Source: Bifidobacterium breve
Lineage (GTDB): Bacteria; Actinomycetota; Acidimicrobiia; Acidimicrobiales; Acidimicrobilacustridaceae
Direction: 5' to 3'
NCBI GenBank assembly: GCA_945860545.1
Contig: CAMAQM010000002.1
Coordinates: forward strand, 57,942-121,941
Length of the DNA: 64,000 bases
Below, piece after piece: positions 43,791-58,080 of the stretch; position 1 is the first letter of the stretch, and the number at the start of each line of letters is the position of its first letter. The notes under the pieces were generated by a model, which did not search any database, was not told the origin of the DNA, and was given only the letters and a program-made list of their open reading frames with translations. The position numbers and the translations under genes are program-made.

Positions 43791-44456
43791 TCAACCGGTG
43801 AACGACGGCTTTGCCGGAGCGGGAGTCGGCGCCGGAGTGGGTTCGGGGTTCACGTTGGTGACGGTGAACGTGGCGGTGGCGTCCGAGTTCGGAAGTGACA
43901 ACAGGTCGTTTGCGGCGGCCACCACGGTGGCGTCACAGGTGGGGCCTTCAACGACGGCTGGGACGTTGAACGGTGCGGCGACCACGGTGGCGGTGCCACC
44001 GGTGAGCGGCGACCCGCCGGGGTTCGCCATCGATGCCTCGATCGTCACCGGACTTGCGAGGTCACAGATCACGGTCTCGCTGATGGCGATCTGCACGTTG
44101 AACACGAAGCCGACGTTCGCAGCACCGCTTGCGGTGTCAAGGGTGCCGGTGAAGGGGCTGGCGTCGGTGATGATGATGGCCGCCTGGGGGCCGGTGCCGC
44201 CGCGCAGGAACGGCGGGATGGAAGTGGTGCCGTTGGTGATCGCGTTGGTCTGCTCGTCAAGGTCGAACGTGATGGTCGCACCCGAGGGCAGCTCGACAGC
44301 GGGCGGCGGGCCGACGGTGATCGCACCGGTCACGGTGTAGGTCTGCGAGACGACTGCAGCGCCAGCGGGTGTGCCGTTGGCGCCGAGTGCGGCGACGAGT
44401 GCGACGGCGCCGCCCACGGCGAGCAGTCGACGGGTGGTTCGAGCGGTTGAGGTCAT
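43791..44456 (-). CDS. secreted protein with PT-rich linker and C-terminal PSFTG
   Basis: Signal peptide MTSTARTTRRLLAVGGAVALVAALGANG..AGA. About 180-aa Thr/Val-rich body with two Cys. Ends NPEPTPAPTPAPAKPSFTG-stop. Lies directly downstream of the SLH protein gene. Confidence 0.7.
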   Translation of the reverse strand: MTSTARTTRRLLAVGGAVALVAALGANGTPAGAAVVSQTYTVTGAITVGPPPAVELPSGATITFDLDEQTNAITNGTTSIPPFLRGGTGPQAAIIITDASPFTGTLDTASGAANVGFVFNVQIAISETVICDLASPVTIEASMANPGGSPLTGGTATVVAAPFNVPAVVEGPTCDATVVAAANDLLSLPNSDATATFTVTNVNPEPTPAPTPAPAKPSFTG

Positions 44457-44515
44457 GGGGGCATCGTAGCCCGGGTAGTTCGGGGCCTTGTCGCCTTGGC
44501 GTCCTCGGGGTGTCT

Positions 44516-47167
44516 TCAGAGGTCGCGGGGGCCTGCGCACGGGTTGCCGTTGCAGACGTCACGGAACGGCCCGTTCTCGGCGAGGTACTCGTCGATGAGG
44601 GTGCGCAGGGCCGACAGGCGTGCGCCAGCCCCATGAGGGTCGGGGAATCCCGGTGTGGACGATGGCCCGGTGTTGGTCGTCGGCGGCGCCGGATTCCCGA
44701 AGTCCCAGATCAACATGCCCGACCCCTGGTGAGGGAAGGTCGTCAGCGGCTCGATGTTCCAGAACGGTTCGACGTCAGGGCTGCGGCCGGGGGCGAGTGC
44801 CGGCTGGCGCAACGGGATGTTCATCGTGCGGGCCATGACCTCGGTGGTGACGTTGGCCACCGCCTCGTCGGCGAACGCCATGAAGATCAAGATGTCCTTG
44901 GCCGGCGTGTTGGCGTACGGCTCACTTGTCACGTGGTGGGCGTAACCGTTGGCCTCCGAGCGGTCCCACAGGATCTGGACCACACCGGACCCGATGGAGC
45001 GTTCAATGGGGTCACCGCCGTAGGCGCCGTTGATGATCGAACTGAACGGTGCGCCGAGCACGCTGCGGTCGAGCAGTGTCGAATAGTTCATGCCGGGCAC
45101 GCCGAGCAGGCCCCGATCGAAATCCTGGGCCACGGCCATCAGGGCGCCGCCCATGATGCCGCCCTGGGACAGGCCGATGTAGAACAACTGGTCGTGGTCG
45201 AGCACGCCGCGACCCTGGCTGTCCCTGAACGCCGGGAGGCTGGCGAGCCCACCGGGGTCCTTCATCGCCCGGCCCAACACCAACATGTTCAGGATGGCTT
45301 GCTGCCCGCGGTCGGGCAGGGTCGGGAAGTCACTGAGGTTCTGCAGCAGGCTGAGCACGGCCCCTGACGTCAGGTCGTCTTGTGACAGACCCCACAGGTC
45401 GACGGCGCAGACCGTGAGGTTGCCGTCACGGATCGCCCAGTCGAGATCCTCTTGGGCGATGCGACCTGAACCGAGCAGGCCGTGTCCGGCGAGCACCATG
45501 CGAGTGGGGTTTGCACCCGACACGTTGGCGGGCATCGCACACCAGTAGGTGACATCCAAGGTGGCCCGTGAGGTCGCCGAGTTCGTGTTGCGGCGCGGCA
45601 GGCCGTCGGGGCCGAGGTTGAAACGTGACCCGGGCTGGCCTGAACCGGTGAGGAAGTTGGGGACCTTCACCACGCCGGTGACGCACTTGAGCAGCGATGG
45701 TGCACAGTCACCGGTCGTTGGGGTCGAGGTGACTGACACGCTGGGGGCTTTGCTGGCGTAGAGGTTGAACGTCTCGTCGCGGATCTTGAGGAGCCGTCCC
45801 GAGATGTTCTCGGCGGAGGCGACGGTGAACTCCCACGCCAGGTACAGCTCTGACCGCTCCACACCTCGGGTCCCGAGGTGGTCAATGGTGGCGTTCACCT
45901 CGGCGCGGCGCGCCTCGATGGCGGGGGATGGGGCAGCCCACTGATTTCGGATGGTGTCAAACGCCAGCGAGGGCTCGAGTGGTGTCCCCGACTCGTCCAC
46001 GAGGTTGCGCAAGCCGACCACATAGGTGGCGCCCTCCTCGAAGTTCACCGCCGGTCGGATGAAGGTGATCCGGTCCTCGTCGTCGGTGACCTGTGCGTCG
46101 AGCTCCGCCCAGTAGGGGTGTCGCTCACCGGTTTCCTTGTTGATGATCACCACTGGTGCATCGGGGTCCAGCGAGGAACCCATGTCGGTGATCGGGGCGA
46201 CACCGGATCGGGTGAGATCGACACCGGGGAGGTGCACCAGCAGCGCCGAGCCGGGACTGAACCCGTCGGAGCGGTTCTGATCGGTGGGATCGATGCGCAC
46301 GCCCGTGGCGTTACGAGGCATTGACAGCCGGTCGAAGTCGAGGCGCAGACCGGTTGCAGTGGTCGCGTCGACCCGGGTGAAGTGGTTCGAGGGGAACGGG
46401 AGCAGACAGCTCCGCGGGTCAAGAACCTCGCAGTCGAACCGGGCGCTCGGTGGCGGAGAATCGAACCAGATCTCAGGGGTGGAGGCCATGCGGGACAGGA
46501 ACGCCGCCATCTGCCCGCGGGTCACCGCGATACCCGGGCCGTAACGGGCGGGGTTGCCGTCAATGCCGTTGGTGATGAATTGCGCCTTCATCCAGCACGT
46601 GGCTGATGCCAGTTCGCCACTGCTGGGGATGTCCTGGAAGCCACAGCTCGTGGGTTGGGGTGCGGCGTTGGCCAACCGGTAAAGGAACAGGGCCATCTCG
46701 CCACGTGTCACCGCCCCCTGGGGTCGGTACGGGTTTGCCACGGTGATGTTCTCCGCTCGCAGCCAGCACACCGCCTCACGGACCGCCGCAGGAATCGTCG
46801 CTTCGTCGCTGAGCCCACACGAGTTCCCTGCAGCGGGCTGGCCCATCATCTTGTGGAGGAAGGTCGCCATCTGCGAGCGGGTCACGACACGCTCCGGGCC
46901 GAAGATCACCCCGCCTGAGACGTTGATGCCAGAGGTGATGTTGCGTTCGACCAGCCAGTTGACGGCGTCGGCGTAGAAAGCGTTGGGTGCAACGTCGGGG
47001 AATTGCGCAATGGCCGGGGTGGCATCTGCTGCGGTCTCGGGTTCGGCGGCCGTTGCCGATGACGCGAACGGCACCGCAGTCATCAACAACCCGATGCTCG
47101 CAATGGTTGCGGCGAGACGGCGCAGGGTTCGGCGGTTTGTGGTGCGACGTGACGGTGCGATGTGCAA
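44516..47167 (-). CDS. secreted triple-SLH-domain protein with alpha/beta-hydrolase-like C-terminal region
   Basis: Signal peptide, then three SLH-like repeats ending TRSQMATFL, TRGEMALFL and TRGQMAAFL, and a later GLSQGG nucleophile-elbow-like motif. GAGGGGGG lies 7 nt before TTG 47167; the longer track ORF would read through the tRNA gene. Confidence 0.75.
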   Translation of the reverse strand: MHIAPSRRTTNRRTLRRLAATIASIGLLMTAVPFASSATAAEPETAADATPAIAQFPDVAPNAFYADAVNWLVERNITSGINVSGGVIFGPERVVTRSQMATFLHKMMGQPAAGNSCGLSDEATIPAAVREAVCWLRAENITVANPYRPQGAVTRGEMALFLYRLANAAPQPTSCGFQDIPSSGELASATCWMKAQFITNGIDGNPARYGPGIAVTRGQMAAFLSRMASTPEIWFDSPPPSARFDCEVLDPRSCLLPFPSNHFTRVDATTATGLRLDFDRLSMPRNATGVRIDPTDQNRSDGFSPGSALLVHLPGVDLTRSGVAPITDMGSSLDPDAPVVIINKETGERHPYWAELDAQVTDDEDRITFIRPAVNFEEGATYVVGLRNLVDESGTPLEPSLAFDTIRNQWAAPSPAIEARRAEVNATIDHLGTRGVERSELYLAWEFTVASAENISGRLLKIRDETFNLYASKAPSVSVTSTPTTGDCAPSLLKCVTGVVKVPNFLTGSGQPGSRFNLGPDGLPRRNTNSATSRATLDVTYWCAMPANVSGANPTRMVLAGHGLLGSGRIAQEDLDWAIRDGNLTVCAVDLWGLSQDDLTSGAVLSLLQNLSDFPTLPDRGQQAILNMLVLGRAMKDPGGLASLPAFRDSQGRGVLDHDQLFYIGLSQGGIMGGALMAVAQDFDRGLLGVPGMNYSTLLDRSVLGAPFSSIINGAYGGDPIERSIGSGVVQILWDRSEANGYAHHVTSEPYANTPAKDILIFMAFADEAVANVTTEVMARTMNIPLRQPALAPGRSPDVEPFWNIEPLTTFPHQGSGMLIWDFGNPAPPTTNTGPSSTPGFPDPHGAGARLSALRTLIDEYLAENGPFRDVCNGNPCAGPRDL

Positions 47168-47280
47168 GGAAATCCCCCCTCGGATCACCGGCGACACTAG
47201 TGGCGACTGGAGCAGGTTGTGGCCGCGGGCCGGTAACCACTTTGGAAACGGACGGCAGGGGGCGTAGGATGGAAGCACGC

Positions 47281-47357
<77 letters not shown>

Positions 47358-47499
47358 AGTGAGGCGATATGCCTGCAATGGAGCCGGTCCCAAGGGGCCG
47401 GCTTCTGTGCTTGTTGGGGATGGACCCTGGGCACATCCTGGGGTGGTGTTCGTCAATTTGACGGTTCCTGGCGGCAATTGATTCTCGGTCGAGGTCACA

Positions 47500-48360
47500 G
47501 TGGTGCCGTACGGTTGGCTAATGGTCAACAACGTTGATACTTCCTCCTGCGGTCGCGGTCTGGACGGCCTACCTGGCCGCCTCCGGATCGCCACCTGGAA
47601 CGTCGAACGACCGAAACCTCGCGGCTGGAAGATCCCACCGGCACAGCGCGAGCGCATGGCCGAGGTCAACGCCCATATCTGGGTGCTCACCGAGACCCAC
47701 GTCGACCACCAGCCAACACCCGCGCATACCCATCGTGCATTCAGCCCCCCGCACCCCGAACGGCGGCCCGACCACGAGCGCTGGGTGGGTATCTGGTCAC
47801 GGTGGCCGATGACTGCGCTCACCGATCCCCCGGCCCACCGGCGGGGCAGCCTGGCTGTGGAGGTCGCCACCCCTTGGGGTCCGGTGATCGTGTACGGCAC
47901 GGTGCTGGCGTGGGCCAATGAGCGCCACTTCGACGACGGCCAACCGGCACGCATGTGGGAGGTGCACCACGCCGAGGTCGACCGCCAGTGCGGCGAGTGG
48001 GCATCAATCGCCCGCAACCATCCCGGCTCCCCGCTCGTGGTCGCCGGTGACTTCAACCAGGATCGAGATGGATCGGGCTGGTACGGAACCAACCCAGCGC
48101 GTAAGGCGGTGACCGACGGACTGGCCGCAGCCGGGCTGGAGTGTGTGACTGCGTTCGACGCTGCCGCCGAGGGACGCCTTGCCACAGGCCACCTTGTCGA
48201 CCACATCTGCGTTAGCCGGCACTGGGCACATCTATCAACCGTTGAGTTGGCCGAGCGCATTGACATCCAGGGCCGACGGCTGTCCGATCACCCGACGGTC
48301 ACCGTCGAGATTGATCTCGATCCCGCTCTAATCCCATTGGTCGAACCGATCGTTCAGTGA
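47500..48360 (+). CDS. endonuclease/exonuclease/phosphatase (EEP) family protein
   Basis: LRIATWNVERP, WVLTETH, VVAGDFNQD, LVDHICVS and LSDHPTVTVEI form the EEP catalytic motif series. An alternative start exists at ATG 47521. Confidence 0.75.
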   Translation: MVPYGWLMVNNVDTSSCGRGLDGLPGRLRIATWNVERPKPRGWKIPPAQRERMAEVNAHIWVLTETHVDHQPTPAHTHRAFSPPHPERRPDHERWVGIWSRWPMTALTDPPAHRRGSLAVEVATPWGPVIVYGTVLAWANERHFDDGQPARMWEVHHAEVDRQCGEWASIARNHPGSPLVVAGDFNQDRDGSGWYGTNPARKAVTDGLAAAGLECVTAFDAAAEGRLATGHLVDHICVSRHWAHLSTVELAERIDIQGRRLSDHPTVTVEIDLDPALIPLVEPIVQ

Positions 48361-48824
48361 CGACGACGGGTCGCAGGGAGCGGCCCACCGATTGATGTCC
48401 CCTTCGTCCGCTGCACCACCAGTGCTGCGTCACGACGGCCCACGGCGGTGCCGGGGTCGCAAACATCCAGCAGCGCCGCCACCTCATCGTCAGCCACGTC
48501 TCTTCCCAGCCGCCCGCTGGTGCCTCGCAGGCGTGGAAGGGCGCGCACGTCGTCGAGTAGCTGCTGGTCGACGAGCCCCAGTCGGCGGGCTTCGCCAAGC
48601 ACCTGGCGGACCACGGTCCAGCACGTGTTGCCCCACGACACCGAAAACGCACCCAGCCCGGCACGCACTGTCGCCACTTCGGCGTAGGTGATGGCCGCCC
48701 AGTCGATGGTGTCGACGTCGAGCAGACGGGCGACGGTGCGCAGCGCGGCGGTGGCGGTCCGACGGGAGTGGTCGGTGCCCAGTCGGGCGAGGTAGAGGGC
48801 AGCGGGGTCAGGTGTGCAGGTCAT
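48354..48824 (-). pseudogene. tyrosine recombinase/integrase, N-terminal core-binding part only
   Basis: The SAM-like core-binding pattern runs up to ..GRDVADDEVAALLDVCDPGTAVGRRDAALVV. The catalytic domain is absent in all three frames, and the ORF runs into the 3' end of the EEP gene. Confidence 0.5.
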
Positions 48825-49839
48825 GCACTTTGGCTGGCTGGGGTGCTGGGGTTACTCACTGCTGCAAAGGCCAGTTGGTGGAAGTCAGCGACCGTAGTCG
48901 GGGGTGTTCACAAGTCGCTCTGACCTGTGGCTATGCGACCACTTGTGAGGGGCGCCGCGACAACCCGAGGGGGCTTCACGGTTCCCAGAACCAGCTCGCG
49001 GCGCTCGGTTGGACATCCGCCTGTTCCAGGGAATCACCTTGATGACCTGCCTAACAGCCGATTCATGGGCAGCGTTGACATCTTCCTGCGACGGACGTTG
49101 CTCACCGGTCCACAGTCAGAACGGTTGACCACGTCGACCTCCTAGACCATGGAATCGAACCGACGCTGTATCGGTTCGCCATCGAGAGCAACTCGCCGAT
49201 CTGCGCCGGGGGATGGCGACCCGAGCACACTCCCGATCCGTGGTCGAACTTCCAACCGCCGATCGATCGGATCGCGGCGCGTGCTTCGAGATCGGCGACT
49301 GCGGCCTCAGCTCGGTCGAGGAATGTGCCGGCGAACACTCGTCGTTGCGTCGTTGCGTCGGCCGGGAAGGTGACCACCTGGCCCGATGGCAGGACCGTGT
49401 AGGCGGCGTGCACCCGATGGGCGAGGTAGGCCTCATCTCACGAGAGCGGTTGTCCGCTTCCCGCGTTCCAGTTCTCGAGATAGTGCGACAACCAGCGCAA
49501 CCGTCTCCTCCAAGAACAACAACAACACCTGCGGCGCACCGCTGATTTTCTGTCGCTTCAGCACGCGCACGGTCCAGCAGAACTCATTGTTCTCGACGAA
49601 GTGCGTGATCGGGAGCTATGAACCACCGCCCTCGGTGACTCGGTGCTTGGTTTGGCGATCTTCACCATGACTGAGCTCAGTGGCACTTTGATCAGGTGCT
49701 GCGAAATCTGGGGACTGGTGGTTCAAAGTAGGCCGCGCCAACAGCAGTTTCGTGAAGAACTTAGAAGAACACCGGCGTGGTAGTAGCGTTCGAATATCGT
49801 TTGGCCACGTCCGGGCGAACGTTTCGCTGGGAGTTTCGA

Positions 49840-51045
49840 ATGATTCGAATGTGGCTGTCCAGTGTCGTCGTCGTTTCGGCGCTTTTGTTGGGCTCTGTTG
49901 TGATGCCGACACCCGCCGATGCGGCGATCGACACGCTGACAATTGTGCCGAGTCCCAACGCTGACACAGGCGATAGTTTTTTGTCGTCGGTGTCGTGTGT
50001 GTCAACCTCATGGTGTGTCGCCGTTGGTTCCACGGGTTCCGTCGACGGCGTAGAGACGCTGATCGAGACCTGGGATGGGAGTTCCTGGACGGTTGTTGAC
50101 AGCCCAACTTCCGGCACTCGCGAAGATTTTTTGCGGTCGGTGTCGTGTGTGTCGACCTCATGGTGTGTCGCCGTTGGTTCCACGTACACCGATTTGGGCA
50201 CACAGGCGTTGATCGAGGTCTGGGATGGGAGTTCCTGGACGGTTGTTGACAGCCCAACTGCCGGCAGCAGCAATGATCAGTTGCGTTCGGTGTCGTGTGT
50301 GTCGACCTCGTGGTGCATCGCCGTTGGTTCCACCTCCACCGATACCGCCACGGAGACGTTGGTCGAGTTGTGGAATGGCAGTTCGTGGTCGGTTGTCGAT
50401 AGTCCGAATGCGTCCACGTTCGAAGACATGTTGCGCTCAGTGTCGTGTGTGTCGACGTCCTCATGCATCGCTGTGGGTTATTCCATCATGGATGGTGGGA
50501 ATCAAACACTGATGCTGACTTGGGATGGAAGTGACTGGTCAATCGTGGACAGCCCGAACCCCGGCACAGCGAATGAAATCCTGAACGGCGTGTCCTGCGC
50601 GTCCCTGTCTTGGTGCGTCGCAGTTGGTGCAACGCCATCAGAATCAGGCAATAAACCATTGGTCGAGGCATGGGATGGCAGCTCGTGGTCGGTCGTTGAG
50701 AGTCCGAATGATGGCAACAGCTTGCTGCAGTCAGTGTCGTGCACATCTGCGTCATCGTGTGTCGCAGTCGGATTCCTCGCTCCCTCTTTTTTCGGCACTG
50801 AGATGCTGGTTCAGGTCTGGGATGGCGTTACCTGGTCAACCCTGCCGAATCCGACTTCGGGCGCAACCGACGGTCAACTCGACGGGGCTTTCTGTCTGTC
50901 TGAGGCTTGGTGTGTCGGCGTTGGGATGAAAGCTGGTAGGACACAAACCTTGGTGGTGTCACTCACCGGCCCTGAGCCGGTACCAACAACAACAACTACA
51001 ACCACGACACTTTCGGACGAAGTCATTCCGTCATTCACCGGTTGA
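49840..51045 (+). CDS. secreted seven-repeat (beta-propeller-like) protein with poly-Thr linker and C-terminal PSFTG
   Basis: Signal peptide MIRMWLSSVVVVSALLLGSVVMPTPADA. Seven units of about 50 aa follow L.SVSC.S.SWCVAVG....TL.E.WDGSSWSVVDSPN. GGGAG precedes ATG 49840. Ends PTTTTTTTTLSDEVIPSFTG-stop. Confidence 0.75.
   Translation: MIRMWLSSVVVVSALLLGSVVMPTPADAAIDTLTIVPSPNADTGDSFLSSVSCVSTSWCVAVGSTGSVDGVETLIETWDGSSWTVVDSPTSGTREDFLRSVSCVSTSWCVAVGSTYTDLGTQALIEVWDGSSWTVVDSPTAGSSNDQLRSVSCVSTSWCIAVGSTSTDTATETLVELWNGSSWSVVDSPNASTFEDMLRSVSCVSTSSCIAVGYSIMDGGNQTLMLTWDGSDWSIVDSPNPGTANEILNGVSCASLSWCVAVGATPSESGNKPLVEAWDGSSWSVVESPNDGNSLLQSVSCTSASSCVAVGFLAPSFFGTEMLVQVWDGVTWSTLPNPTSGATDGQLDGAFCLSEAWCVGVGMKAGRTQTLVVSLTGPEPVPTTTTTTTTLSDEVIPSFTG
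49978..50965 (+). repeat. intragenic tandem repeat, period about 150 nt, about 7 copies
   Basis: The first copies share long near-identical DNA runs, such as gtgtcgtgtgtgtcgacctcatggtgtgtcgccgttggttccac and tgggatgggagttcctggacggttgttgacagcccaac. Confidence 0.7.
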
Positions 51046-51183
51046 ATCCGCGGTCGCTCGGCGACGGGTGACGCTCGCTTCTTCGCAGGCATCCCGGGAT
51101 TCAACCCCGGATTCATTTCATAGGCTGCCCGATCAAGCACACCGCGCCGGTTTCAGCCAATCGCGCCGGCAGCTACTTGACGA

Positions 51184-51855
51184 TCAGCAGGTGAAGGCGG
51201 GAACCACTTCGGGCGCGATGGTCGTGCTGGTGGTCGGCACGTACGCGACTCCGACCGGACCCCAGTTCAGACCGAACACTTCAGCACCGACGACCGACAG
51301 CAGTTCGATCTCGTCGCTCGGGGTGGCCACGCTCGCCGACCTGATCGATGTGGAGCCGCCATCACTAGAGACAAATGCGATCCGCACGCCATCTGCAGAC
51401 CACGTGGGCGTATGGATCCGCTGTCCACAGCGCGCCTTCGCCACAGGACTGACACCGGTCCCGTCCGCACTCATCGTCCAGATGCTCGTCGAAGGACCGC
51501 TTTCCTTCGCCCAGCTGATGCGGGTGCCATCGGGCGACCAGGACGGATCGCTGTCGTCGCCGACACGATCTGTGAGCCGGCGCACATCGGAACCATCGGC
51601 GTTCATCACGTAGATCTCGAGATCGCCGTCCATGGTGCTTGACAACACGATGCGGGTGCCGTCGGGTGAGTACTTCGCCGTGTAGATGAATGAGTCGAAC
51701 GAGGTGAGCTGCATGGGCGAGGTGCCATCGACGTTCATCTCCCACAGTTCCTGGAAGCCACTGCGGTCAGAAACGTAGAGGATGCGCGAACCGTCGGGGA
51801 AGAAAGTCGGTGCCGTGTCGATCGACGAACCGTTGGTCAGTTGGGTGAGACCGGT
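51184..51855 (-). pseudogene. PD40/TolB-like beta-propeller protein, 5'-truncated, ending PAFTC
   Basis: Repeated P.FSPDG-type blades (FFPDGSRILYVSD, YSPDGTRIVL, WSPDGTRISW, WSADGVRIAF). There is no signal peptide, and the apparent N-terminus of the track ORF is simply the antisense translation of the tRNA remnant. Confidence 0.6.
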
Positions 51856-51856
51856 T

Positions 51857-51919
51857 TCTGGTAGCTCGGCGCACTCATAACCCGAAGGTCGCAGGTTCAA
51901 ATCCTGCCCCCGCCACCAA
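51857..51919 (+). repeat. partial copy of the tRNA-Met 3' region (att-like direct repeat)
   Basis: It aligns with 47296-47358 with 5 mismatches. Two of these are compensatory in the T-stem (GTAGG/CCTAC versus GCAGG/CCTGC). The 5' acceptor and D-arm are missing. Confidence 0.8.
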
Positions 51920-52124
51920 CTCGGGTCTTCGCCCGTCACCGGAGCCGGTCCTGCGGGGCCGGCTTTTGTGCTTGTCGGCCCCGTGTGGAATCCGTCGGAT
52001 CACCAAGTTTCGGATCAGTCTCGATCTTTACCCCCGTAATCCTGGCGCCCTCTGCCTGTCGTGTCCCCACCACGCCAAACCCGCCGTCACCGGCACCATC
52101 CCCACCGGGCTCGGCAACCATTCC

Positions 52125-52304
52125 ATGGCGCTTGGTTCTATGGCAGCGATCATCCTTTGGAGTCGCAGCGGCAGTCGCTACCTGGAGCGCTTCAACTACG
52201 CCGGCTGGGTGGCACTGACCGACTACCTCACCCAGACCATCCTCGGGCTCACCACGCCGGGTTGGCTGCTCACCGGCGTCGGCTTGACCCGCACGACCGT
52301 GTGA
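52125..52304 (+). pseudogene. fragment of a DUF418 (YeiB-like) membrane protein
   Basis: Only a short piece, ..RYLERFNYAGWVALTDYLTQTILGL.., resembles the conserved GRMALTNYLLQS region. There is no upstream remainder. Confidence 0.35.
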
Positions 52305-52369
52305 AGTGCCGGCGCCGCTGGTGTTGTTGGGATCGCATCACGACGACGTGGCCGGTGCGGCCACCGTCA

Positions 52370-52813
52370 TCATCGGTTGGAGCGGATCCGTCCGGGCGTA
52401 ACCAAAACCGCGGTGCGACACTGTTCGCGCATGGTGCGGTCGTAGTCGTCCCAGTCGTCGTGGGTGCCGCCGGCGGCGGTGAAGACGTCTCGCATCAGGA
52501 CCCGAATCCGGTCCGGGTCAAGCTCGAACGTGTTGTCGTCGGGACCGACGAGTTCGGCGGCGCCGGTCACCGCCACCCAGTTCCAAGCCCGCCGAATGGC
52601 GACGGTCACGGGCGAGCCGCGTCGGACGTGGCGCAGACGGGCTGCAGCGCCTCCGGAGACGAAAGCGACTCGTGGCTCGTGGGTGACCGGATGATCGATG
52701 ACGCCACAGTTCACGACAGTGGACAGAACCGCGCCGTCGGCCTGCACGGTGGACGCCACGGCGAGGCCGTGCTCGTCGGCCAGGAACGACCGGACGGTGT
52801 CGAGTGGGGCCAT
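52370..52813 (-). CDS. pyridoxamine 5'-phosphate oxidase family protein (PPOX class, possibly F420-dependent)
   Basis: Pattern VRSFLADEHGLAVASTVQADGAVLSTVV ... VAFVSGGAAARLRHVRRGSPVTV ... WVAVTGAAELV is typical of the split-barrel family. ATG 52813 was chosen. Confidence 0.7.
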   Translation of the reverse strand: MAPLDTVRSFLADEHGLAVASTVQADGAVLSTVVNCGVIDHPVTHEPRVAFVSGGAAARLRHVRRGSPVTVAIRRAWNWVAVTGAAELVGPDDNTFELDPDRIRVLMRDVFTAAGGTHDDWDDYDRTMREQCRTAVLVTPGRIRSNR

Positions 52814-52901
52814 GGTCGCCTCAGCTCCCACCGGTGTTGACTTCGAGCATGTCACCCATACCGAATGCACCTTGGGTCCCGGCGGTCACCTGCTCGGCTG
52901 C

Positions 52902-52928
52902 GGGGTTGGCGGGGTTGGCGGGGTTGGC
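52902..52928. repeat. 9-bp tandem repeat (GGGGTTGGC) x3
   Basis: Three exact copies lie in the divergent intergenic region between the PPOX gene and the next FTG-tagged gene. Confidence 0.85.
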
Positions 52929-53030
52929 GGCATCGGTCATGCCCACATGGCGTACTCATGCTGTCTGTACATGGTGTATTGTCATGGCGGAAGGCACCGA
53001 AATCGACGCCGATATGCCAAGGAGCGAACC

Positions 53031-53834
53031 ATGGACAACCTGAGAGCAGGACTCGCGGATGCGTCGTCGATTCCGCATGCGAGGCTGGCGAAACGTGGTT
53101 TCTCTCTCCTGATCGCAGGTGTCTTGGTCCTGGCGGTGAGCGGTCCGCTCAGCAGCGCCAGTGCCCAACCGTCGAATTTCCTTACCTCGGACTACGGGAC
53201 CGGCACCGTGTTCGCCGAGGGACGGGCGTGCTGGGTGGGGTATCCGTTCCAAGTGAACGAAGCCATTGAGGTCACGGCCCTCATCGGTAGCCCGGAGTTC
53301 CCTGGCGGCTCGTCAAAGCCGATTGGCTACGAGGTAGCGATCTTCGAGGGTGGGTACGCGCCAGCGGATGAGGAGGCAGCGCAGGATGGTCTTGGCTGGA
53401 CGGGCACGGGTCTGATTGCAAGTGCGACGTTCACCGAGTCCGGTGAGGATCAGGCCGCATCCTTGTCCAGTCCCGTGGTGCTCGAGCCGGGCACCTGGTA
53501 CTTCCTCGGTGGGGGGTTCATCGAGGACGACTCGGTCTCCGGACCATACGTCGTCGAAGAGTTCGACCCCGTCGGCATGACGGCACCGGGTTCCGCTATC
53601 TCGACCTGGGCGGTGGCTGGCGACGGCACGAACCGGTCGCTTTCTCTTCCCCCGTGCGTCGGGTCGGCATCGGACCTTGCCACCCTTAGCAGCGACGACT
53701 CGTCGAATGTGAGGCCGTCCTATGGCTTTGCCTACGGTCCTGCTCCCGAGCCGGAGCCCCCAACTCCAACCCCGACCTCAACGCCGACGCCCGGACCGAC
53801 GCCCGGACCCGTGGCACCGAGCTTCACCGGTTGA
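53031..53834 (+). CDS. secreted protein with PT-rich linker and C-terminal PSFTG
   Basis: AAGGAG lies 6 nt before ATG 53031. Signal peptide ..FSLLIAGVLVLAVSGPLSSASA. Ends PEPEPPTPTPTSTPTPGPTPGPVAPSFTG-stop. Confidence 0.7.
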   Translation: MDNLRAGLADASSIPHARLAKRGFSLLIAGVLVLAVSGPLSSASAQPSNFLTSDYGTGTVFAEGRACWVGYPFQVNEAIEVTALIGSPEFPGGSSKPIGYEVAIFEGGYAPADEEAAQDGLGWTGTGLIASATFTESGEDQAASLSSPVVLEPGTWYFLGGGFIEDDSVSGPYVVEEFDPVGMTAPGSAISTWAVAGDGTNRSLSLPPCVGSASDLATLSSDDSSNVRPSYGFAYGPAPEPEPPTPTPTSTPTPGPTPGPVAPSFTG

Positions 53835-54390
53835 CGTGAAGCGTGTGGCCGACCCGTGGGACATCGTGAGTAACGGTGTCGCCACAGGGTCGTCGCAGGA
53901 TCGAAGTGGGTTCATGAGGAGCGGCGCAGAATAACTGCGGGCAGATCTTGGAACTCGACGTTGCCGCCATCGATACCGGGGTGAGGCTGCCATCGGCGCG
54001 AATGACATCGTGGCGGAGGTGGGTGTTGCCCCGCCGGTGCCCTACTGCCACGTCGGTAGTTGCGACGGGCTTGTGATCGCAGCACCGGTCGAGCGCTACT
54101 CCCGCCGGGCGTCTGACGACATCGTCGTGATCCGGCGGGCCGAGGCCCCGCCCGGTGTGAGAGCTCTAGGTCGCTGCCGTTGGTTGGATTACTCATTCCC
54201 CGGGCGCCGTCACCGGCGGGTACACGATTGCGAGCAGGAGTGTGGGTGGGGTCTGTGCCATGCTTTCGCTTGGGTCTCGACTGTGTGTGGACAAGCCCGG
54301 TGGATTGAACGGGTCGGTACCGGACAGACGGAAGGCCACGCGTACCAGCCCCGAGGGTCGGGGACCACCTCGAACAAGGAGTACCTCTCA

Positions 54391-55089
54391 ATGGCCAAGA
54401 CCAGTTTTTGGGGCGCACGTGCAGCGGCTGTGGCTGCTGCCGTTGGCCTCCTCGTCGGCACCGCCGGAGTTGTGGAAGCACAGCCCGTCGGCGGTGTTGA
54501 CGTCGCCTTCAACATCGCCGCAGGCGGAAGTTTGTCTGTCCCCCCTCTCGACGACAACTTTGAGATTGCCGTCCCCGACCCCAACGCACCGCAGCTGCAG
54601 GGCTCGTGGGACCCGACGACCGGCGATTTCGTCGGCGACCTGTCCGAAGAGAAGTTCACGGTCCAGATCACTGATCCGCTGGACATCACGATTGAGGTCT
54701 CCTTCGCGTCAACGGGGGTGAGCGGCAACATCCCGGCCGACGGCGAGCCCGGTTTCGTGGAGGTTTCGGGCTTCACCTACACCGCGCGTAATCCGGCCGA
54801 TCCGGTAGTGCTGAACTGCACGCTGGACGCGGGGGACGTGGAATTGGCCGCCACTCTGGTCCCCGGCGAGCCGGTCGGTCTGGTGTTGACGGGTACGGTC
54901 GTGTTTCCGTTGTCTCCGCTGCCTGGAGGCTGTGCTCTGTTGGCCTCACTGCTGCCCCAGGGGACGAACTCCCTCCCCGTGGATCTTGACTTGAGGCTGG
55001 CGCAGGTCACCGAACCGGCGCCCACGCCGACCCCCGAACCCGCGCCCACGCCCGCCCCTGCGGTCGCCAAGCCCGCGTACACCGGCTGA
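54391..55089 (+). CDS. secreted protein with PT-rich linker and C-terminal PAYTG
   Basis: AAGGAG lies 9 nt before ATG 54391. Signal peptide MAKTSFWGARAAAVAAAVGLLVGTAGVVEA. Two Cys. Ends EPAPTPTPEPAPTPAPAVAKPAYTG-stop. Confidence 0.7.
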   Translation: MAKTSFWGARAAAVAAAVGLLVGTAGVVEAQPVGGVDVAFNIAAGGSLSVPPLDDNFEIAVPDPNAPQLQGSWDPTTGDFVGDLSEEKFTVQITDPLDITIEVSFASTGVSGNIPADGEPGFVEVSGFTYTARNPADPVVLNCTLDAGDVELAATLVPGEPVGLVLTGTVVFPLSPLPGGCALLASLLPQGTNSLPVDLDLRLAQVTEPAPTPTPEPAPTPAPAVAKPAYTG

Positions 55090-55117
55090 GTCAACTCACT
55101 CATAATTGGTGGTCCTG

Positions 55118-55153
55118 GACACGGGGGCCTCGCTTCGGCGGGGCCCCCGTGTC
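55118..55153 (+). terminator. strong hairpin terminator candidate
   Basis: The perfect 12-bp stem GACACGGGGGCC/GGCCCCCGTGTC is extended by three C-G/G-C pairs and a G-U pair around a TTCG tetraloop, 29 nt after the stop. No U-tract follows, as is common in high-GC actinobacteria. Confidence 0.6.
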
Positions 55154-55291
55154 ACGTCCTCAAGCGAGATCCGTCGCTTGTGGCACGGAGATCCGCGCGC
55201 CGCTACCGACGTTGGCGTCGGGCCCGCTGAGGACCTTTACCTGCATCGCGGGGTAGCGGTGGTTGGGTAGTCATTGCATACTTTCCTAAGA

Positions 55292-55311
55292 GAATGTTGA
55301 TGCATCAACAT
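55292..55311. promoter_or_regulatory. perfect 20-bp palindrome AATGTTGATG/CATCAACATT (operator candidate)
   Basis: It sits in an AT-rich patch 60 bp upstream of the ADP-ribosylglycohydrolase GTG start. Confidence 0.5.
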
Positions 55312-55371
55312 TTATCGGCGGTCAGTTCCCTCCGGTTCGGGCCGCAACACCAAAGCGGTAAGGAAGATCAC

Positions 55372-56448
55372 GTGACACACGACGACCCACGGGTACCCCA
55401 ACGACTGCTGCCGTCAACGAGCGCCCCACCTGCGCAACCTGCGCGCATTGCCGCCGAGCGTCGAATCGAGTCTGCACGCGGCGTCATGGTGGGCACGGCC
55501 GTCGGTGACGCGCTCGGTCGGCCCGCCGAGGCACGCGACCCCACAACGTTTCGAGGCCGGGAGGATGACTTCCGGCACTATCAGCCGTGGAGCGGCTACG
55601 CGGGTGGACCGCCGGGAACGTTCACCGATGACACCCAGATGAGTATCTGCGTGGCGGAATCGATCCTCATCGGTGGCGGTCGGATTGACCCTGTCGACCT
55701 CGCCGAGCGTTTCGTTGCGTGGCTCCCCGAAGGTCGGGGGAAGGGCCAGACGTGTGTGGACGCGGTCCTTGAACTGGAGATGGGCGTCCCGTGGTGGGAG
55801 GCGGGTCAACCGTCCGCTGGCAACGGTGCTGCCATGCGAGTGGCCCCGATCGGAATCGCGCTGGGATCTGATATCGACGCGTTGTGTCTCGACAGCGCGC
55901 TCTCCGCAGTGATCACCCACGCAGATCCGATGGCGGTCGCAGGTGCGGTTGGACACGCCTGGCTCGTCGCCCGACTCGCTGCGTTGCGACCCGGCGGATT
56001 GGACGCCGCTTCGCTGCTCGACGATCTCGCGACTGCAATTTCGGTCATTGACGATCCCGGACACCCCGAACGGAGTTGGGAGAAGCGTCCAGGGAAGACG
56101 TCGGAACCGATCACACTGGCGTCACGTGTCCGGGAAGTCGCCGACATGCTTTCGTGGCCGACCGACAAGGCGTTCAGCCACCTGTACAACGGAGCCTTCG
56201 TGCTGGAAACGCTCCCGTGTGCCCTGTGGTGTTTTCTCCGTGACGTCAACGACCCCGAGGAAGGGGTGGTGACTGCCGTACTTGGTGGGCGCGACGCCGA
56301 CACCGTCGCATCCATGGCCGCGGCCTACTTCGGAGCGCTCCATGGCCCTAATGCCTTCCCGGAGCGGTGGTGCGGTGAGAACCTTGAGCGCTGGGACGAC
56401 CTCATCGATCTCGCTGATCGGCTCGTCGCGCTACCGGAGGTGTCCTGA
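55372..56448 (+). CDS. ADP-ribosylglycohydrolase family protein
   Basis: GTAVGDALGRP, FTDDTQMS, GNGAAMRVAPIG, GGRDADTVASMAAAYFGA. AAGGAAG precedes GTG 55372. Confidence 0.8.
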   Translation: MTHDDPRVPQRLLPSTSAPPAQPARIAAERRIESARGVMVGTAVGDALGRPAEARDPTTFRGREDDFRHYQPWSGYAGGPPGTFTDDTQMSICVAESILIGGGRIDPVDLAERFVAWLPEGRGKGQTCVDAVLELEMGVPWWEAGQPSAGNGAAMRVAPIGIALGSDIDALCLDSALSAVITHADPMAVAGAVGHAWLVARLAALRPGGLDAASLLDDLATAISVIDDPGHPERSWEKRPGKTSEPITLASRVREVADMLSWPTDKAFSHLYNGAFVLETLPCALWCFLRDVNDPEEGVVTAVLGGRDADTVASMAAAYFGALHGPNAFPERWCGENLERWDDLIDLADRLVALPEVS

Positions 56449-56553
56449 CGCGTCCTGCTCCGTTGGTCGGCCACACAACCGCTGACCACGACTGATCTTC
56501 ACCTCGTCCGAACGCAGTGTTGGCCCTTAGGACCGGTTCCAGTGGCGCGTCGT

Positions 56554-58080
56554 TCAGCCGGTGAAGGCGGGCCTGACCACCGGGGTCGCTGCTCCGAGTG
56601 GGGTTGGCTCAGGGCCGGGGGCCGAGGGTTGCGGCCCCATTGGGGTGCACGCCCCGGGGACCCACGTCGGGTCGGCGGCGGGGGCGTACCCGGTTTCACC
56701 GACGTCGGCGGATGCGGCCGTCAGCGCGGAGTACTCGTCGTCCTGTTCGGTCACGAACCCCCAATTGCTGTTCTCCCCGTCAGCTCGCCCGATGGCGGGC
56801 TGGTCAACGAGGCCGAACCAGTGGGCCCCGACGACGGCGCCGGTGTTGACGAGGCACTGGGCGAAGTTCCGGTAGCGGTCGGCGCGCTCTTGTTGTGTTG
56901 CGACGACGACCTGCAGCGGCGGCCAGGTGTTGGGCAGCCCCGAGTCGGTCGCCCGCCAACCGAACTCGCTAATCAACAATGGCTTGTCGGCGCGTGACCT
57001 GTGGGCGGCGAGCGTGTCGGCGGTTGGCAGGAATCGCGGCCCGACCCGGCCCACCAGTGCCTCGGCCTCCGGCGTCAATTCGTACCAGTTGATGCTGACC
57101 ACGTCGACGTGCCGGGCGGCGGCGTCGAGGACCTCGGGCACGATGAGTTGACCGAAGAAGCGGGTGCCGAGATTCATGTGGTTCGGGGCTGCAGCGGCAA
57201 GCGCAGCGTCCGTGACGGCGAAGTAGCGGTCGGCAACCTCGCCTGACCAGGCGTCACGGGTGGCCTGTGCACCCGGCCCGCGATCGGTGAGGGTGGTGGC
57301 AGCCGCCAGTGCTCCCCAGTCGCCAGCAGCGGTGTCGAAATCGGCGGCGAACGCCGCGAAGTTGTCTGCGTAGCGTCCCCGCAGCCAGTTCACCAGGTGC
57401 GTCTTGCCCGGCTCGGGAGATCCGCGTTCGGCGTAGTAGTCGAGCTGGTCACGTGGACGGAAGTCCTTCGTCCAGTGCAGCTCGTTATCGAGGAAATACC
57501 CCACCAGCCAGGGGTCGTTGGCCTTCCCGGCGGCCGCTTCCACCGTCTCTGCCTGCACGCTGTCCACCCAAGTCGGTGCCCAGAAGTCGTCGGTGCGTCC
57601 CGTGGCGACATCGTGATCGGCGAGCGAGAGCGAGACGGTGTACGGCGCGCGTCCGGCGAAGAGATCCAGATTGCTCCACCCACCGATGGTGTTGATCCCC
57701 CAGGAGTCGAAACGGGCCAGTTGGGCGTCAGCCCACGCAGCTTCACTGCCGTACTTGGCGAGAATGGTGTCGAGGTAGGCGGCGTTGCCGTTCCTGTCGA
57801 CGGTTCCCGTCGGGCGGACCGAGTTCAGCCCATTTGAGAAGAACGGGTGACCGTCGGGCGTCACCAGCCACCAGCGGTCGTCGACCTTCTCGGTGCGGAA
57901 ATGGCCGGTGGCGGCGAGCGTCAGCGGTGCCCATCCTCCGTAGGTGTCCCACAGTTCTTCGGCTGCGGACGATGGGGCAGGGGTGGCGATGGTTGCGAGC
58001 AGAATGAGTGTCGCTGCGAGGCCAGCACCGACGAACCGCAGCGGTGCACGACGACGCTGACAAGATCGCAGCTGAGGCAT
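56554..58080 (-). CDS. secreted glycoside hydrolase-like TIM-barrel protein with C-terminal PAFTG
   Basis: Arg-rich signal peptide (QRRRAPLRFVGAGLAATLILLA). FLDNELHW and LISEFGW are clan GH-A-like acid/base and nucleophile contexts. Ends PEPTPLGAATPVVRPAFTG-stop. Confidence 0.65.
   Translation of the reverse strand: MPQLRSCQRRRAPLRFVGAGLAATLILLATIATPAPSSAAEELWDTYGGWAPLTLAATGHFRTEKVDDRWWLVTPDGHPFFSNGLNSVRPTGTVDRNGNAAYLDTILAKYGSEAAWADAQLARFDSWGINTIGGWSNLDLFAGRAPYTVSLSLADHDVATGRTDDFWAPTWVDSVQAETVEAAAGKANDPWLVGYFLDNELHWTKDFRPRDQLDYYAERGSPEPGKTHLVNWLRGRYADNFAAFAADFDTAAGDWGALAAATTLTDRGPGAQATRDAWSGEVADRYFAVTDAALAAAAPNHMNLGTRFFGQLIVPEVLDAAARHVDVVSINWYELTPEAEALVGRVGPRFLPTADTLAAHRSRADKPLLISEFGWRATDSGLPNTWPPLQVVVATQQERADRYRNFAQCLVNTGAVVGAHWFGLVDQPAIGRADGENSNWGFVTEQDDEYSALTAASADVGETGYAPAADPTWVPGACTPMGPQPSAPGPEPTPLGAATPVVRPAFTG

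Follow-up and report, generated by a model that had tools for sequence, protein, structure and literature searches.

To our knowledge, the display of proteins on Gram-positive surfaces is almost wholly accounted for by sortases and by non-covalent wall-binding domains. Sortases act on LPXTG or LAXTG signals, which lie at the C-terminus of unrelated proteins made with signal peptides, often follow a Pro/Thr-rich stalk, and contain an invariant Thr-Gly pair. The stretch of DNA analysed here (64,000 nucleotides of contig CAMAQM010000002.1, referred to as the window) comes from an uncultured Acidimicrobiales bacterium, and six neighbouring secreted proteins encoded in it end in a tag which shares these properties, Pro-x-Phe/Tyr-Thr-Gly-stop, placed after a flexible linker. 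Acidimicrobiia and Thermoleophilia, the two classes of Actinomycetota in which we followed this tag, are abundant in soil, freshwater and the sea and have barely been cultured.

The likely outcome for a tagged protein is also that of sortase signals, in which a Cys transpeptidase couples the carbonyl of Thr to an amine of the wall. However, the tagged proteins stop at the Gly, without helix or basic tail, and none of the three structural features of LPXTG signals is present. In addition, the tag has Pro at position -5 from the C-terminus and not at -4, has an aromatic residue at -3 and no Leu, and its neighbouring enzyme, where one is found, is a YkuD-fold L,D-transpeptidase and not a sortase, which we saw in no tag locus. 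The resemblance to sortase signals pointed out in the initial annotation of this stretch is therefore superficial. PEP-CTERM with exosortase, PGF-CTERM with archaeosortase, GlyGly-CTERM with rhombosortase and MYXO-CTERM with myxosortase resemble the tag in their restriction to certain lineages and in the occasional adjacency of substrate and enzyme genes. Those domains are tripartite, comprising a motif, a helix and an Arg cluster, and are served by intramembrane enzymes, whereas the tag consists of a motif only and its candidate enzyme is predicted to be a soluble or lipid-anchored extracytoplasmic protein. Among the features by which Haft recognizes C-terminal sorting domains (10.1101/2023.06.07.544157), the tag displays five, namely C-terminal position, multiplicity (six copies, each closing its protein, in 14 kb of a single contig), at least three near-invariant residues, signal peptides and unrelated carriers, and lacks two, the transmembrane helix and the Arg cluster.

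The remaining point of comparison is protein attachment by L,D-transpeptidases, as described for Lpp (by LdtA/B/C), for OutB and for beta-barrel proteins of Coxiella, Brucella and Agrobacterium (PMC12729407). These cases likewise involve the YkuD family, a very short terminal motif and no membrane segment, and their outcome, a protein covalently bound to peptidoglycan, is the one that we propose for the tag. However, in these Gram-negative systems the protein gives the amine, from a C-terminal Lys or the N-terminus, whereas the Thr-Gly-COOH of the actinomycetotal tag, with no Lys, fits a donor. The natural donor, the tetrapeptide stem L-Ala-D-iGlu-mDAP-D-Ala-COOH (iGlu, isoglutamate; mDAP, meso-diaminopimelate), ends, as we propose for the tag, in one leaving residue that bears a free carboxylate and follows an L-configured residue whose carbonyl is passed on, but the upstream P-x-F/Y of the tag consists of ordinary L-amino acids in place of D-iGlu and mDAP. 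A likeness to the choice-of-anchor domains (NCBIfam NF041518 and relatives) concerns some of the carrier proteins and not the tag itself.

The six tagged genes encode proteins of different kinds. The first (43791-44456, minus strand) encodes a 221-aa secreted protein of unknown fold, with no Pfam or NCBIfam match, which has a PEPTPAPTPAPA linker and ends ..AKPSFTG (tag codons and stop at 43791-43808); an identical copy of this gene is present on a JGI metagenome contig (L175). The second (49840-51045, plus strand) encodes a secreted protein of 401 aa with seven propeller-like repeats, a poly-Thr linker and the ending ..VIPSFTG (tag at 51028-51045), and its G+C content at third codon positions (GC3) is 0.64, compared with about 0.8 in neighbouring genes. 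The third (51184-51855, minus strand) is a 5'-truncated PD40 beta-propeller gene (Pfam PD40 repeats, E = 4e-27) whose upstream end abuts a partial tRNA-Met copy at 51858-51918; its ending, ..VVPAFTC (tag at 51184-51201), is a decayed copy of the tag with Cys in place of Gly. The fourth (53031-53834, plus strand) encodes a 267-aa secreted protein without a family match in Pfam or NCBIfam, with a PTPTSTPTPGPTPGP linker and the ending ..VAPSFTG (tag at 53817-53834). The fifth (54391-55089, plus strand) encodes a 232-aa secreted protein with a PAPTPTPEPAPTPAPA linker and the ending ..AKPAYTG (tag at 55072-55089). The sixth (56554-58080, minus strand) encodes a 508-aa secreted glycoside hydrolase-like enzyme, homologues of which are called agarase in some sources, with a short P-rich linker and the ending ..VVRPAFTG (tag at 56554-56571). 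An ENA metagenome contig covering the same region has identical gene calls, with products of 508, 232, 267, 251 and 401 aa.

All six endings read as the initial annotation had given them, each followed by TGA and with similar codons. The five intact proteins have N-termini which by inspection resemble signal peptides, with a charged start, a hydrophobic run and an Ala-rich cleavage region, again in agreement with that annotation; the sixth gene lacks its 5' end. The earlier description of the tag as a portable module on unrelated mature domains also held, since PD40 was found only in the truncated gene and no Pfam domain was common to the six carriers. None of the six contained a choice-of-anchor domain in NCBIfam. 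Two details of the annotation had to be amended. The 221-aa and 232-aa proteins, which had been grouped as small two-Cys proteins, have no detectable relation to each other (no BLASTP alignment at E <= 100), and the linker, which had been called PT-rich, is better described as S/T/P/A-rich, and is short in the tagged genes found beside an enzyme.

We examined whether such endings exceed what composition alone would yield, a check proposed, for the complete genome, together with the original observation and made here for the window. A six-frame scan of the 64 kb for open reading frames (ORFs) ending [FYW]T[GC]-stop returned exactly the same six, all between 43,791 and 58,080 and 255-512 codons long, and none within the first 43 kb. 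From the amino-acid composition of the window, each protein has a probability of 3.4e-6 of ending in P[SA][FY]TG, so that 1.3e-4 endings are expected in about 39 genes, compared with five observed plus the Cys variant (Poisson P ~3e-22). None of 100 codon-block shuffles contained a P[SA][FY]TG ending. In the 180 nt past each stop we found neither a hydrophobic helix nor a basic tail in any of three frames, and the DNA downstream of the six stops had no repeat in common. This indicates that the proteins truly end at the Gly, and that the ending does not derive from a repeated DNA element. We discarded recoding of TGA and a frameshift past the stop as explanations, as no frame runs on into an anchor. 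The tails had no match among NCBIfam and Pfam models even at E <= 10, including TIGR01167 and the other NCBIfam anchor models, consistent with the earlier statement that they fall outside the PEP-CTERM, GlyGly-CTERM, PGF-CTERM and LPXTG classes. Our literature search returned nothing relevant on terminal pentapeptides of the PxFTG type, or on YkuD enzymes tied to a sorting signal. Selection maintains the tag as a portable module at the C-termini of secreted proteins, and the tag is almost certainly both real and undescribed.

Homologues of the 508-aa enzyme revealed how the tag is conserved. Among the 38 closest (42-99% identity; those named come from metagenome-assembled genomes of Acidimicrobiales and Iamiaceae), 35 have [PA]-x-[FY]-T-G at the very end, preceded by diverged S/T/P/A-rich linkers, in variants that include PAFTG, PRYTG, PTFTG, PRFTG, PTYAG and PRFTA. 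The next tier of homologues lacks linker and tag alike and stops with the catalytic domain (..PCTPVGTQxxPG). No homologue runs past the Gly or into a membrane anchor, the outcome that the initial annotation had named as refuting its reading, in favour of truncations or assembly errors. Mean pairwise identity among the orthologues is 0.66 over the last five residues, compared with 0.14-0.27 across the preceding 35, and the 35 orthologue tags contain P in 28, F or Y in 35, T in 32 and G in 34, with a weaker upstream preference for A-x-[AP]-V at about -12 to -9. A logo built from these 35 orthologues and 15 enzyme-adjacent tails has P at -5, a variable residue at -4, F/Y at -3, T at -2 and G at -1. 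T, R, V or A occupy position -6, where K is rare, and there is no conserved Lys across the last 14 positions; Thr is rarely replaced by Ala or Val, and Gly rarely by Ala. A scan with this enzyme family of one genome per GTDB species gave 80 loci, of which about nine were from Acidimicrobiia, and the loci that carried the tag belonged to Acidimicrobiales and Iamiaceae. The roughly nine Acidimicrobiia loci contained no additional tags and no candidate processing enzyme. As a negative control, 1.04 Mb of sequence from other phyla in the same scan had the strict tag at no ORF end.

The tag is also carried by many proteins in environmental samples. We scanned JGI metagenomes for the DNA pattern CCS KCS TTC ACC GGY TGA, which encodes P[AS]FTG-stop, and obtained at least 120 loci. 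Approximately two thirds of the 120 listed were noise in short ORFs, and about 35 were genuine long tagged ORFs with high GC3; most had a signal peptide-like start, an S/T/P/A-rich linker was usual, and for nine the exact protein with the chosen start was a called gene in a public collection. The tag is restricted to exported proteins; ordinary cytoplasmic proteins with a chance PAFTG end, among them the crotonase-like L234 and L165 and the phage tail-like L172, were left out of the catalogue. Carriers included propeller-like repeat proteins, beta-helix proteins, small beta-sandwich proteins ending ..TVTNTF, a large protein read by eye as an alpha/beta-hydrolase-type peptidase (L140), and a protein ending ..APATPAFTG (L224/P0529; found on 107 contigs and in 169 blocks of the collection index), which by eye is a homologue of the window's 232-aa protein. 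In two beta-helix proteins (L206 and L147) the NCBIfam choice-of-anchor Q domain lies immediately before the tag; this domain is presumably named for sitting before differing C-terminal anchors. Another carrier (L174) belongs to the SCO2321 family, named 'membrane protein' in NCBIfam, with a match to profile positions 36-231 of 405. Together, the choice-of-anchor Q domain and the SCO2321-family carrier point to a role in anchoring.

A scan of viral contigs for the tag DNA gave 35 matches, nearly all in tiny ORFs, which indicates the level of noise. Two IMG/VR contigs, L091 (5956, plus strand) and L109 (4237, plus strand), have ORFs of 191 and 346 aa which end ..THLIPAFTG and ..AAVRAAPAFTG after Pro/Ala-rich stretches, and may represent true tagged proteins of phages or prophages.

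The loci selected for the tag provided a candidate enzyme. In seven of them (L127, L156, L159, L167, L180, L197 and L219), a YkuD-family gene lies directly downstream of the tagged gene on the same strand, often within 0-20 nt. These genes were spotted in the fetched loci by their catalytic signature SHGC[IL]R, and a local YkuD hidden Markov model (HMM) brought the count to seven; the same model found none in the control loci, the window or the Acidimicrobiales loci. In L180, 1 nt separates the stop of the tagged gene from the ATG of the enzyme, and in L159 two successive genes, ending ..QPSFTG and ..KPVFTG, precede it. The encoded enzymes match Pfam PF03734 YkuD (E = 7e-21 to 3e-19), have an SH3-like domain (SH3_3) before it, and keep the catalytic SHGC[IL]R motif, with SHGC invariant in the alignment. 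Their nearest solved structure is B. subtilis YkuD 1y7m (E = 3e-13), and they have no NCBIfam equivalog. Assuming that about 1 in 1000 genes encodes an L,D-transpeptidase, which is our own estimate, about 0.05 such adjacencies would be expected by chance among the approximately 35 loci. When 310 neighbouring ORFs were compared with one another, all against all, the other neighbours that recurred were generic dehydrogenases and crotonases, and none was specific. The partner proteins belong to at least five unrelated families, and BLAST similarity between them is confined to the tail.

We then approached the association from the enzyme. The subfamily has 5,985 members in the protein collection at E <= 1e-10, and 601 clusters (50% identity) at E <= 1e-30; nearly all homologues with a named taxon are from Thermoleophilia (Solirubrobacterales, Solirubrobacteraceae and Gaiellaceae), with one partial sequence labelled Acidobacteriota. 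On long contigs, five of seven members had a gene ending PSFTG, PAFTG or PGFTG immediately upstream. Some of these partners are Cys-rich/Big_1 proteins (..VRAPSFTG and ..HHPPAFTG), and the others are ferritin-like, each encoded by the second gene of a paralogous pair (..GGSPAFTG, ..GGSPSFTG and ..GHDPGFTG). One of the five loci also encodes, at 0.7 kb, a DUF6351 protein ending ..RGPTFTG. In the ferritin-like pair, a 16-residue extension ending in the tag is present only on the enzyme-proximal copy, whereas the first paralogue ends ..ATGFIQG, which indicates that the tag was added to the enzyme-proximal copy only. A sixth enzyme locus (L244) is a cluster of three enzymes, with a small secreted protein ending ..SRTPGFTG two genes away. 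Several of these pairs have orthologues among those found before, so that they represent conservation and not fully independent replication. The tag is tightly coupled in the genome to YkuD genes in Thermoleophilia. In the Gaiellales-type loci (L197, L219, L239, L242 and L243), a longer tail, [PA]xMT[AT][ST]GxxP[SAG]FTG, is common to unrelated partners of closely related enzymes; this suggests co-adaptation of tag and enzyme, and would fit enzyme-specific recognition. The neighbour of enzyme P0150 has the C-terminal tail ..FAAKAATAVRAPSFTG. A scan of viral contigs for the enzyme found none.

Several further features of these loci were recorded. The three YkuD genes of the Solirubrobacterales-type locus L244 (7143-11465) lie with a CAP-domain protein within a polysaccharide locus (Wzy, glycosyltransferase), where a further protein ends ..RVYHVFAG and may carry a degenerate tag. 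Several small tagged proteins, enzyme-adjacent or related, have a Cys 8-17 residues from the C-terminus (L156, L158, L159 and L244; ..NKCRPAVVKPAFTG, ..NRCPTRRAARTPSFTG, ..SICKPKPVFTG and ..SVCARSAALPSRTPGFTG). In P0274, an 803-aa multidomain protein, the C-terminal YkuD domain follows a PT-rich linker and reads SHGSIR, with Ser for the catalytic Cys, and may be an inactive or serine-type variant.

From these observations, we propose that [AP]-V-x(1-4)-P-x-[FY]-T-G-COOH, following a disordered S/T/P/A-rich spacer, is a sorting or attachment signal without a membrane-retention part, carried by Sec-exported proteins of deep-branching Actinomycetota (Acidimicrobiia and Thermoleophilia), by which these proteins would be linked to the wall by a YkuD enzyme. 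We put the probability of this reading at roughly 0.45. After export and removal of the signal peptide, the free C-terminus would be captured outside the cytoplasm by an L,D-transpeptidase of the YkuD family, of a subfamily that has an SH3b-like domain at the N-terminus. The catalytic Cys would attack the Thr-Gly bond, with Gly leaving and a thioester forming on Thr. This thioester would be resolved by a wall amine, for example the free amino group of a stem-peptide diamino acid, leaving the protein amide-linked through Thr with the linker as a stalk. According to a 2025 review, L,D-transpeptidases are defined by cleavage of the mDAP-D-Ala bond, in which a Cys thioester forms and a single terminal residue is released from the tetrapeptide, followed by transfer to water, free amino acids, another stem or protein amines (PMC12729407). 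The tag has the formal features of such a donor, an L-residue, Thr, followed by a single achiral terminal Gly with a free carboxylate, and because Gly is achiral and terminal the Thr-Gly bond could imitate the mDAP-D-Ala bond of the stem. The strong invariance of Thr and Gly, together with the lack of a conserved Lys, favours a donor sequence. The specific proposal of sortase-independent wall anchoring in both classes, in which a dedicated YkuD subfamily uses the Thr-Gly end of a protein as its acyl donor, is tentative, and we rate it at somewhat worse than an even chance.

Several observations weigh against this proposal. We found no YkuD gene in the window, in the 4 kb that follow it, or in the remaining Acidimicrobiales and Iamiaceae sequence examined (about 250-300 kb in all, comprising the window, L001, L003-L008, L010, L067, L074, L246, L249 and L253); a YkuD match in L006 was a low-complexity artefact. 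For the window itself this agrees with the initial annotation, which saw no candidate enzyme there, and neither the YkuD HMM nor the sortase TLxTC pattern gave anything real. Every adjacency of tag and enzyme with a named organism is from Thermoleophilia, and context look-ups of four Acidimicrobiales-type tagged genes found no adjacent enzyme. The sole linker-type tag locus with a YkuD gene nearby is L250, where the tagged gene has a poly-Thr linker and the YkuD gene is 6.5 kb away and encodes a protein of different architecture, a lipoprotein with PG_binding_1 and YkuD domains. This contig is probably from Acidimicrobiia, a placement made only because it has a DUF6777-like protein in common with an Acidimicrobiales contig, and it shows only that such lineages possess the YkuD enzyme family. 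A homologue of the enzyme with a poly-Thr linker (P0314), pursued as a possible seed for Acidimicrobiia, led back to Solirubrobacteraceae. Two of the seven enzyme-centred loci (L244 and L245) have no tagged gene directly upstream, and L245 alone has no tag-ending ORF at all. In all of the L,D-transpeptidase protein attachments reviewed, which are from Gram-negative organisms, the protein is the amine acceptor and the stem is the donor (PMC12729407). A replicon of a cultured member of Thermoleophilia, Miltoncostaea oceani (NZ_CP064357.1, 815 kb), had no tag-ending ORF in the 1-197000 examined, and its YkuD homologue is a variant with SNGCIR. We also know of no L,D-transpeptidase that uses an all-L protein tail as donor. 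The part of the M. oceani replicon examined (L263-L267) contains mostly hypothetical genes, with type IV pilus/type II secretion system, dnaE, SecY-like and tail-fibre genes.

The case for one system in both classes is built on the identical P-x-F-T-G-COOH core, the common upstream [AP]-V, and near-identical single tags, such as ..PAVVKPAFTG beside the enzyme in L156 and ..VPVVKPAFTG in the Acidimicrobiales protein P0004. We give the assignment of a YkuD enzyme to the window's lineage about even odds. The suggestion in the initial annotation of a transpeptidase with Gly as leaving group gains circumstantial support from the YkuD genes that adjoin PxFTG genes in Thermoleophilia; no comparable adjacency was found in the Acidimicrobiia sequence examined, and the chemistry is one that we infer.

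We weighed other explanations for the tag. It might act by non-covalent docking, which the initial annotation had included in its second hypothesis, with ..P-x-[FY]-T-G-COOH as an uncleaved ligand that keeps the protein at the surface. The receptor would be a domain with affinity for C-terminal or proline-containing peptides, for example an SH3b-like or PDZ-like domain on a wall or membrane protein. C-terminal peptide ligands, PDZ ligands among them, typically have this build, a very short motif that closes the chain behind a flexible linker, and the adjacent enzymes do have an SH3-like domain. However, the recurrent neighbour is a catalytically intact transpeptidase, with SHGCIR kept, and not a bare binding domain, and the residues that vary least, Thr and Gly, suit a scissile bond more than a hydrophobic C-terminal ligand. 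Near the tags we saw no receptor with repeated binding domains, and we consider docking unlikely. The adjacency of tag and enzyme would fit equally well with YkuD attachment in the known direction, in which a tetrapeptide is the donor, the protein's N-terminus or a Lys is the acceptor, and the tag merely recruits the enzyme. This direction is the only one documented for the family (Lpp, OutB and beta-barrel proteins; PMC12729407), but we judge it improbable for the tagged proteins, as neither the tag nor its surroundings contain a conserved Lys, invariance is concentrated in the three final residues up to the Gly-COOH, as a donor mimic needs, and the placement of the tag at the very end would be left unexplained.

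We attach a similarly low probability to another C-terminal event without wall attachment. For example, a tail-specific or PDZ protease might recognize the tag for maturation or turnover, or the tag might cue glycosylation where the linker ends, or signal the quality of secretion. The S/T/P-rich linkers of actinobacterial exoproteins are often O-glycosylated, which makes such a cue conceivable, but no protease or glycosyltransferase recurs beside the tagged genes, and the position of the choice-of-anchor Q domain just ahead of the tag speaks for an anchor. Class E sortases are widespread in Actinomycetota, and the Thr-Gly pair is common to the tag and to sortase signals, so that the tag might be a minimal substrate which a sortase of class E or F cuts between Thr and Gly, like LAXTG and LPXTG signals, despite the absence of a membrane anchor. 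This is very unlikely: besides the differences in register and residues described above, the tag has no hydrophobic segment or basic tail, the parts that hold a sortase substrate at the membrane, and no real ORF with a TLxTC signature was present in the window or in the tag loci scanned. Sortase ligation, moreover, works poorly in practice on an LPXTG whose Gly bears a free carboxylate. Finally, a tag without function, arising by chance, recent paralogy of the tails, a repeat element supplying the last codons or an assembly artefact, has a negligible probability, for although the codons and the TGA are similar in all six genes, which are clustered, with two in an island remnant, only about 1e-4 endings are expected compared with six observed, and the DNA past the stops is not in common. 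Independent assemblies contain the same endings as well, and these recur in 35 diverged orthologues, whose linkers are unrelated, and across many unrelated families in further samples.

If a YkuD enzyme does attach proteins with the tag as acyl donor, the tag would be the first protein-sorting signal without a membrane-retention element, and the enzyme the first L,D-transpeptidase with a protein as donor. A five-residue tag without a membrane anchor would represent a new design of sorting signal, and would allow tagged secreted proteins to be read as surface-retained. As a C-terminal surface-sorting signal served by a Cys transpeptidase it would fall among known kinds of system, while the donor-mimic mechanism, if right, would be a categorically new use of an L,D-transpeptidase. 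The chemistry of this family of antibiotic targets would be widened from protein acceptor to protein donor, and would have converged with that of sortases, a Cys nucleophile cutting between Thr and Gly in both. The tag might also serve as a very small ligation tag in protein engineering.

Part of the tagged cluster looks like the remnant of an integrated element carrying tagged genes. This island remnant of about 4.6 kb (47281-51918) extends between a tRNA-Met gene (47281-47357, plus strand) and a 61-nt copy of its 3' part (51858-51918, plus strand). It contains an ORF of the endonuclease/exonuclease/phosphatase family (47500-48360), an integrase remnant (48354-48824, minus strand), the tagged propeller gene (49840-51045) and the truncated PD40 gene, and has a lower GC3. 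The presence of two tagged genes in the remnant suggests that tagged genes can travel on mobile DNA. Adjoining the first tagged gene is a gene for a 933-aa secreted protein (44516-47317, minus strand) with SLH domains and a weak phospholipase-like region, which suggests that the host also uses SLH-type non-covalent wall binding. Other neighbours of the six genes encode an ADP-ribosylglycohydrolase and transporters. Past the right end of the window (L001 1-5759, approximately window 62322-68080), there are genes for a 606-aa Lon_C-domain protein and a 1584-aa RHS/YD-repeat protein.

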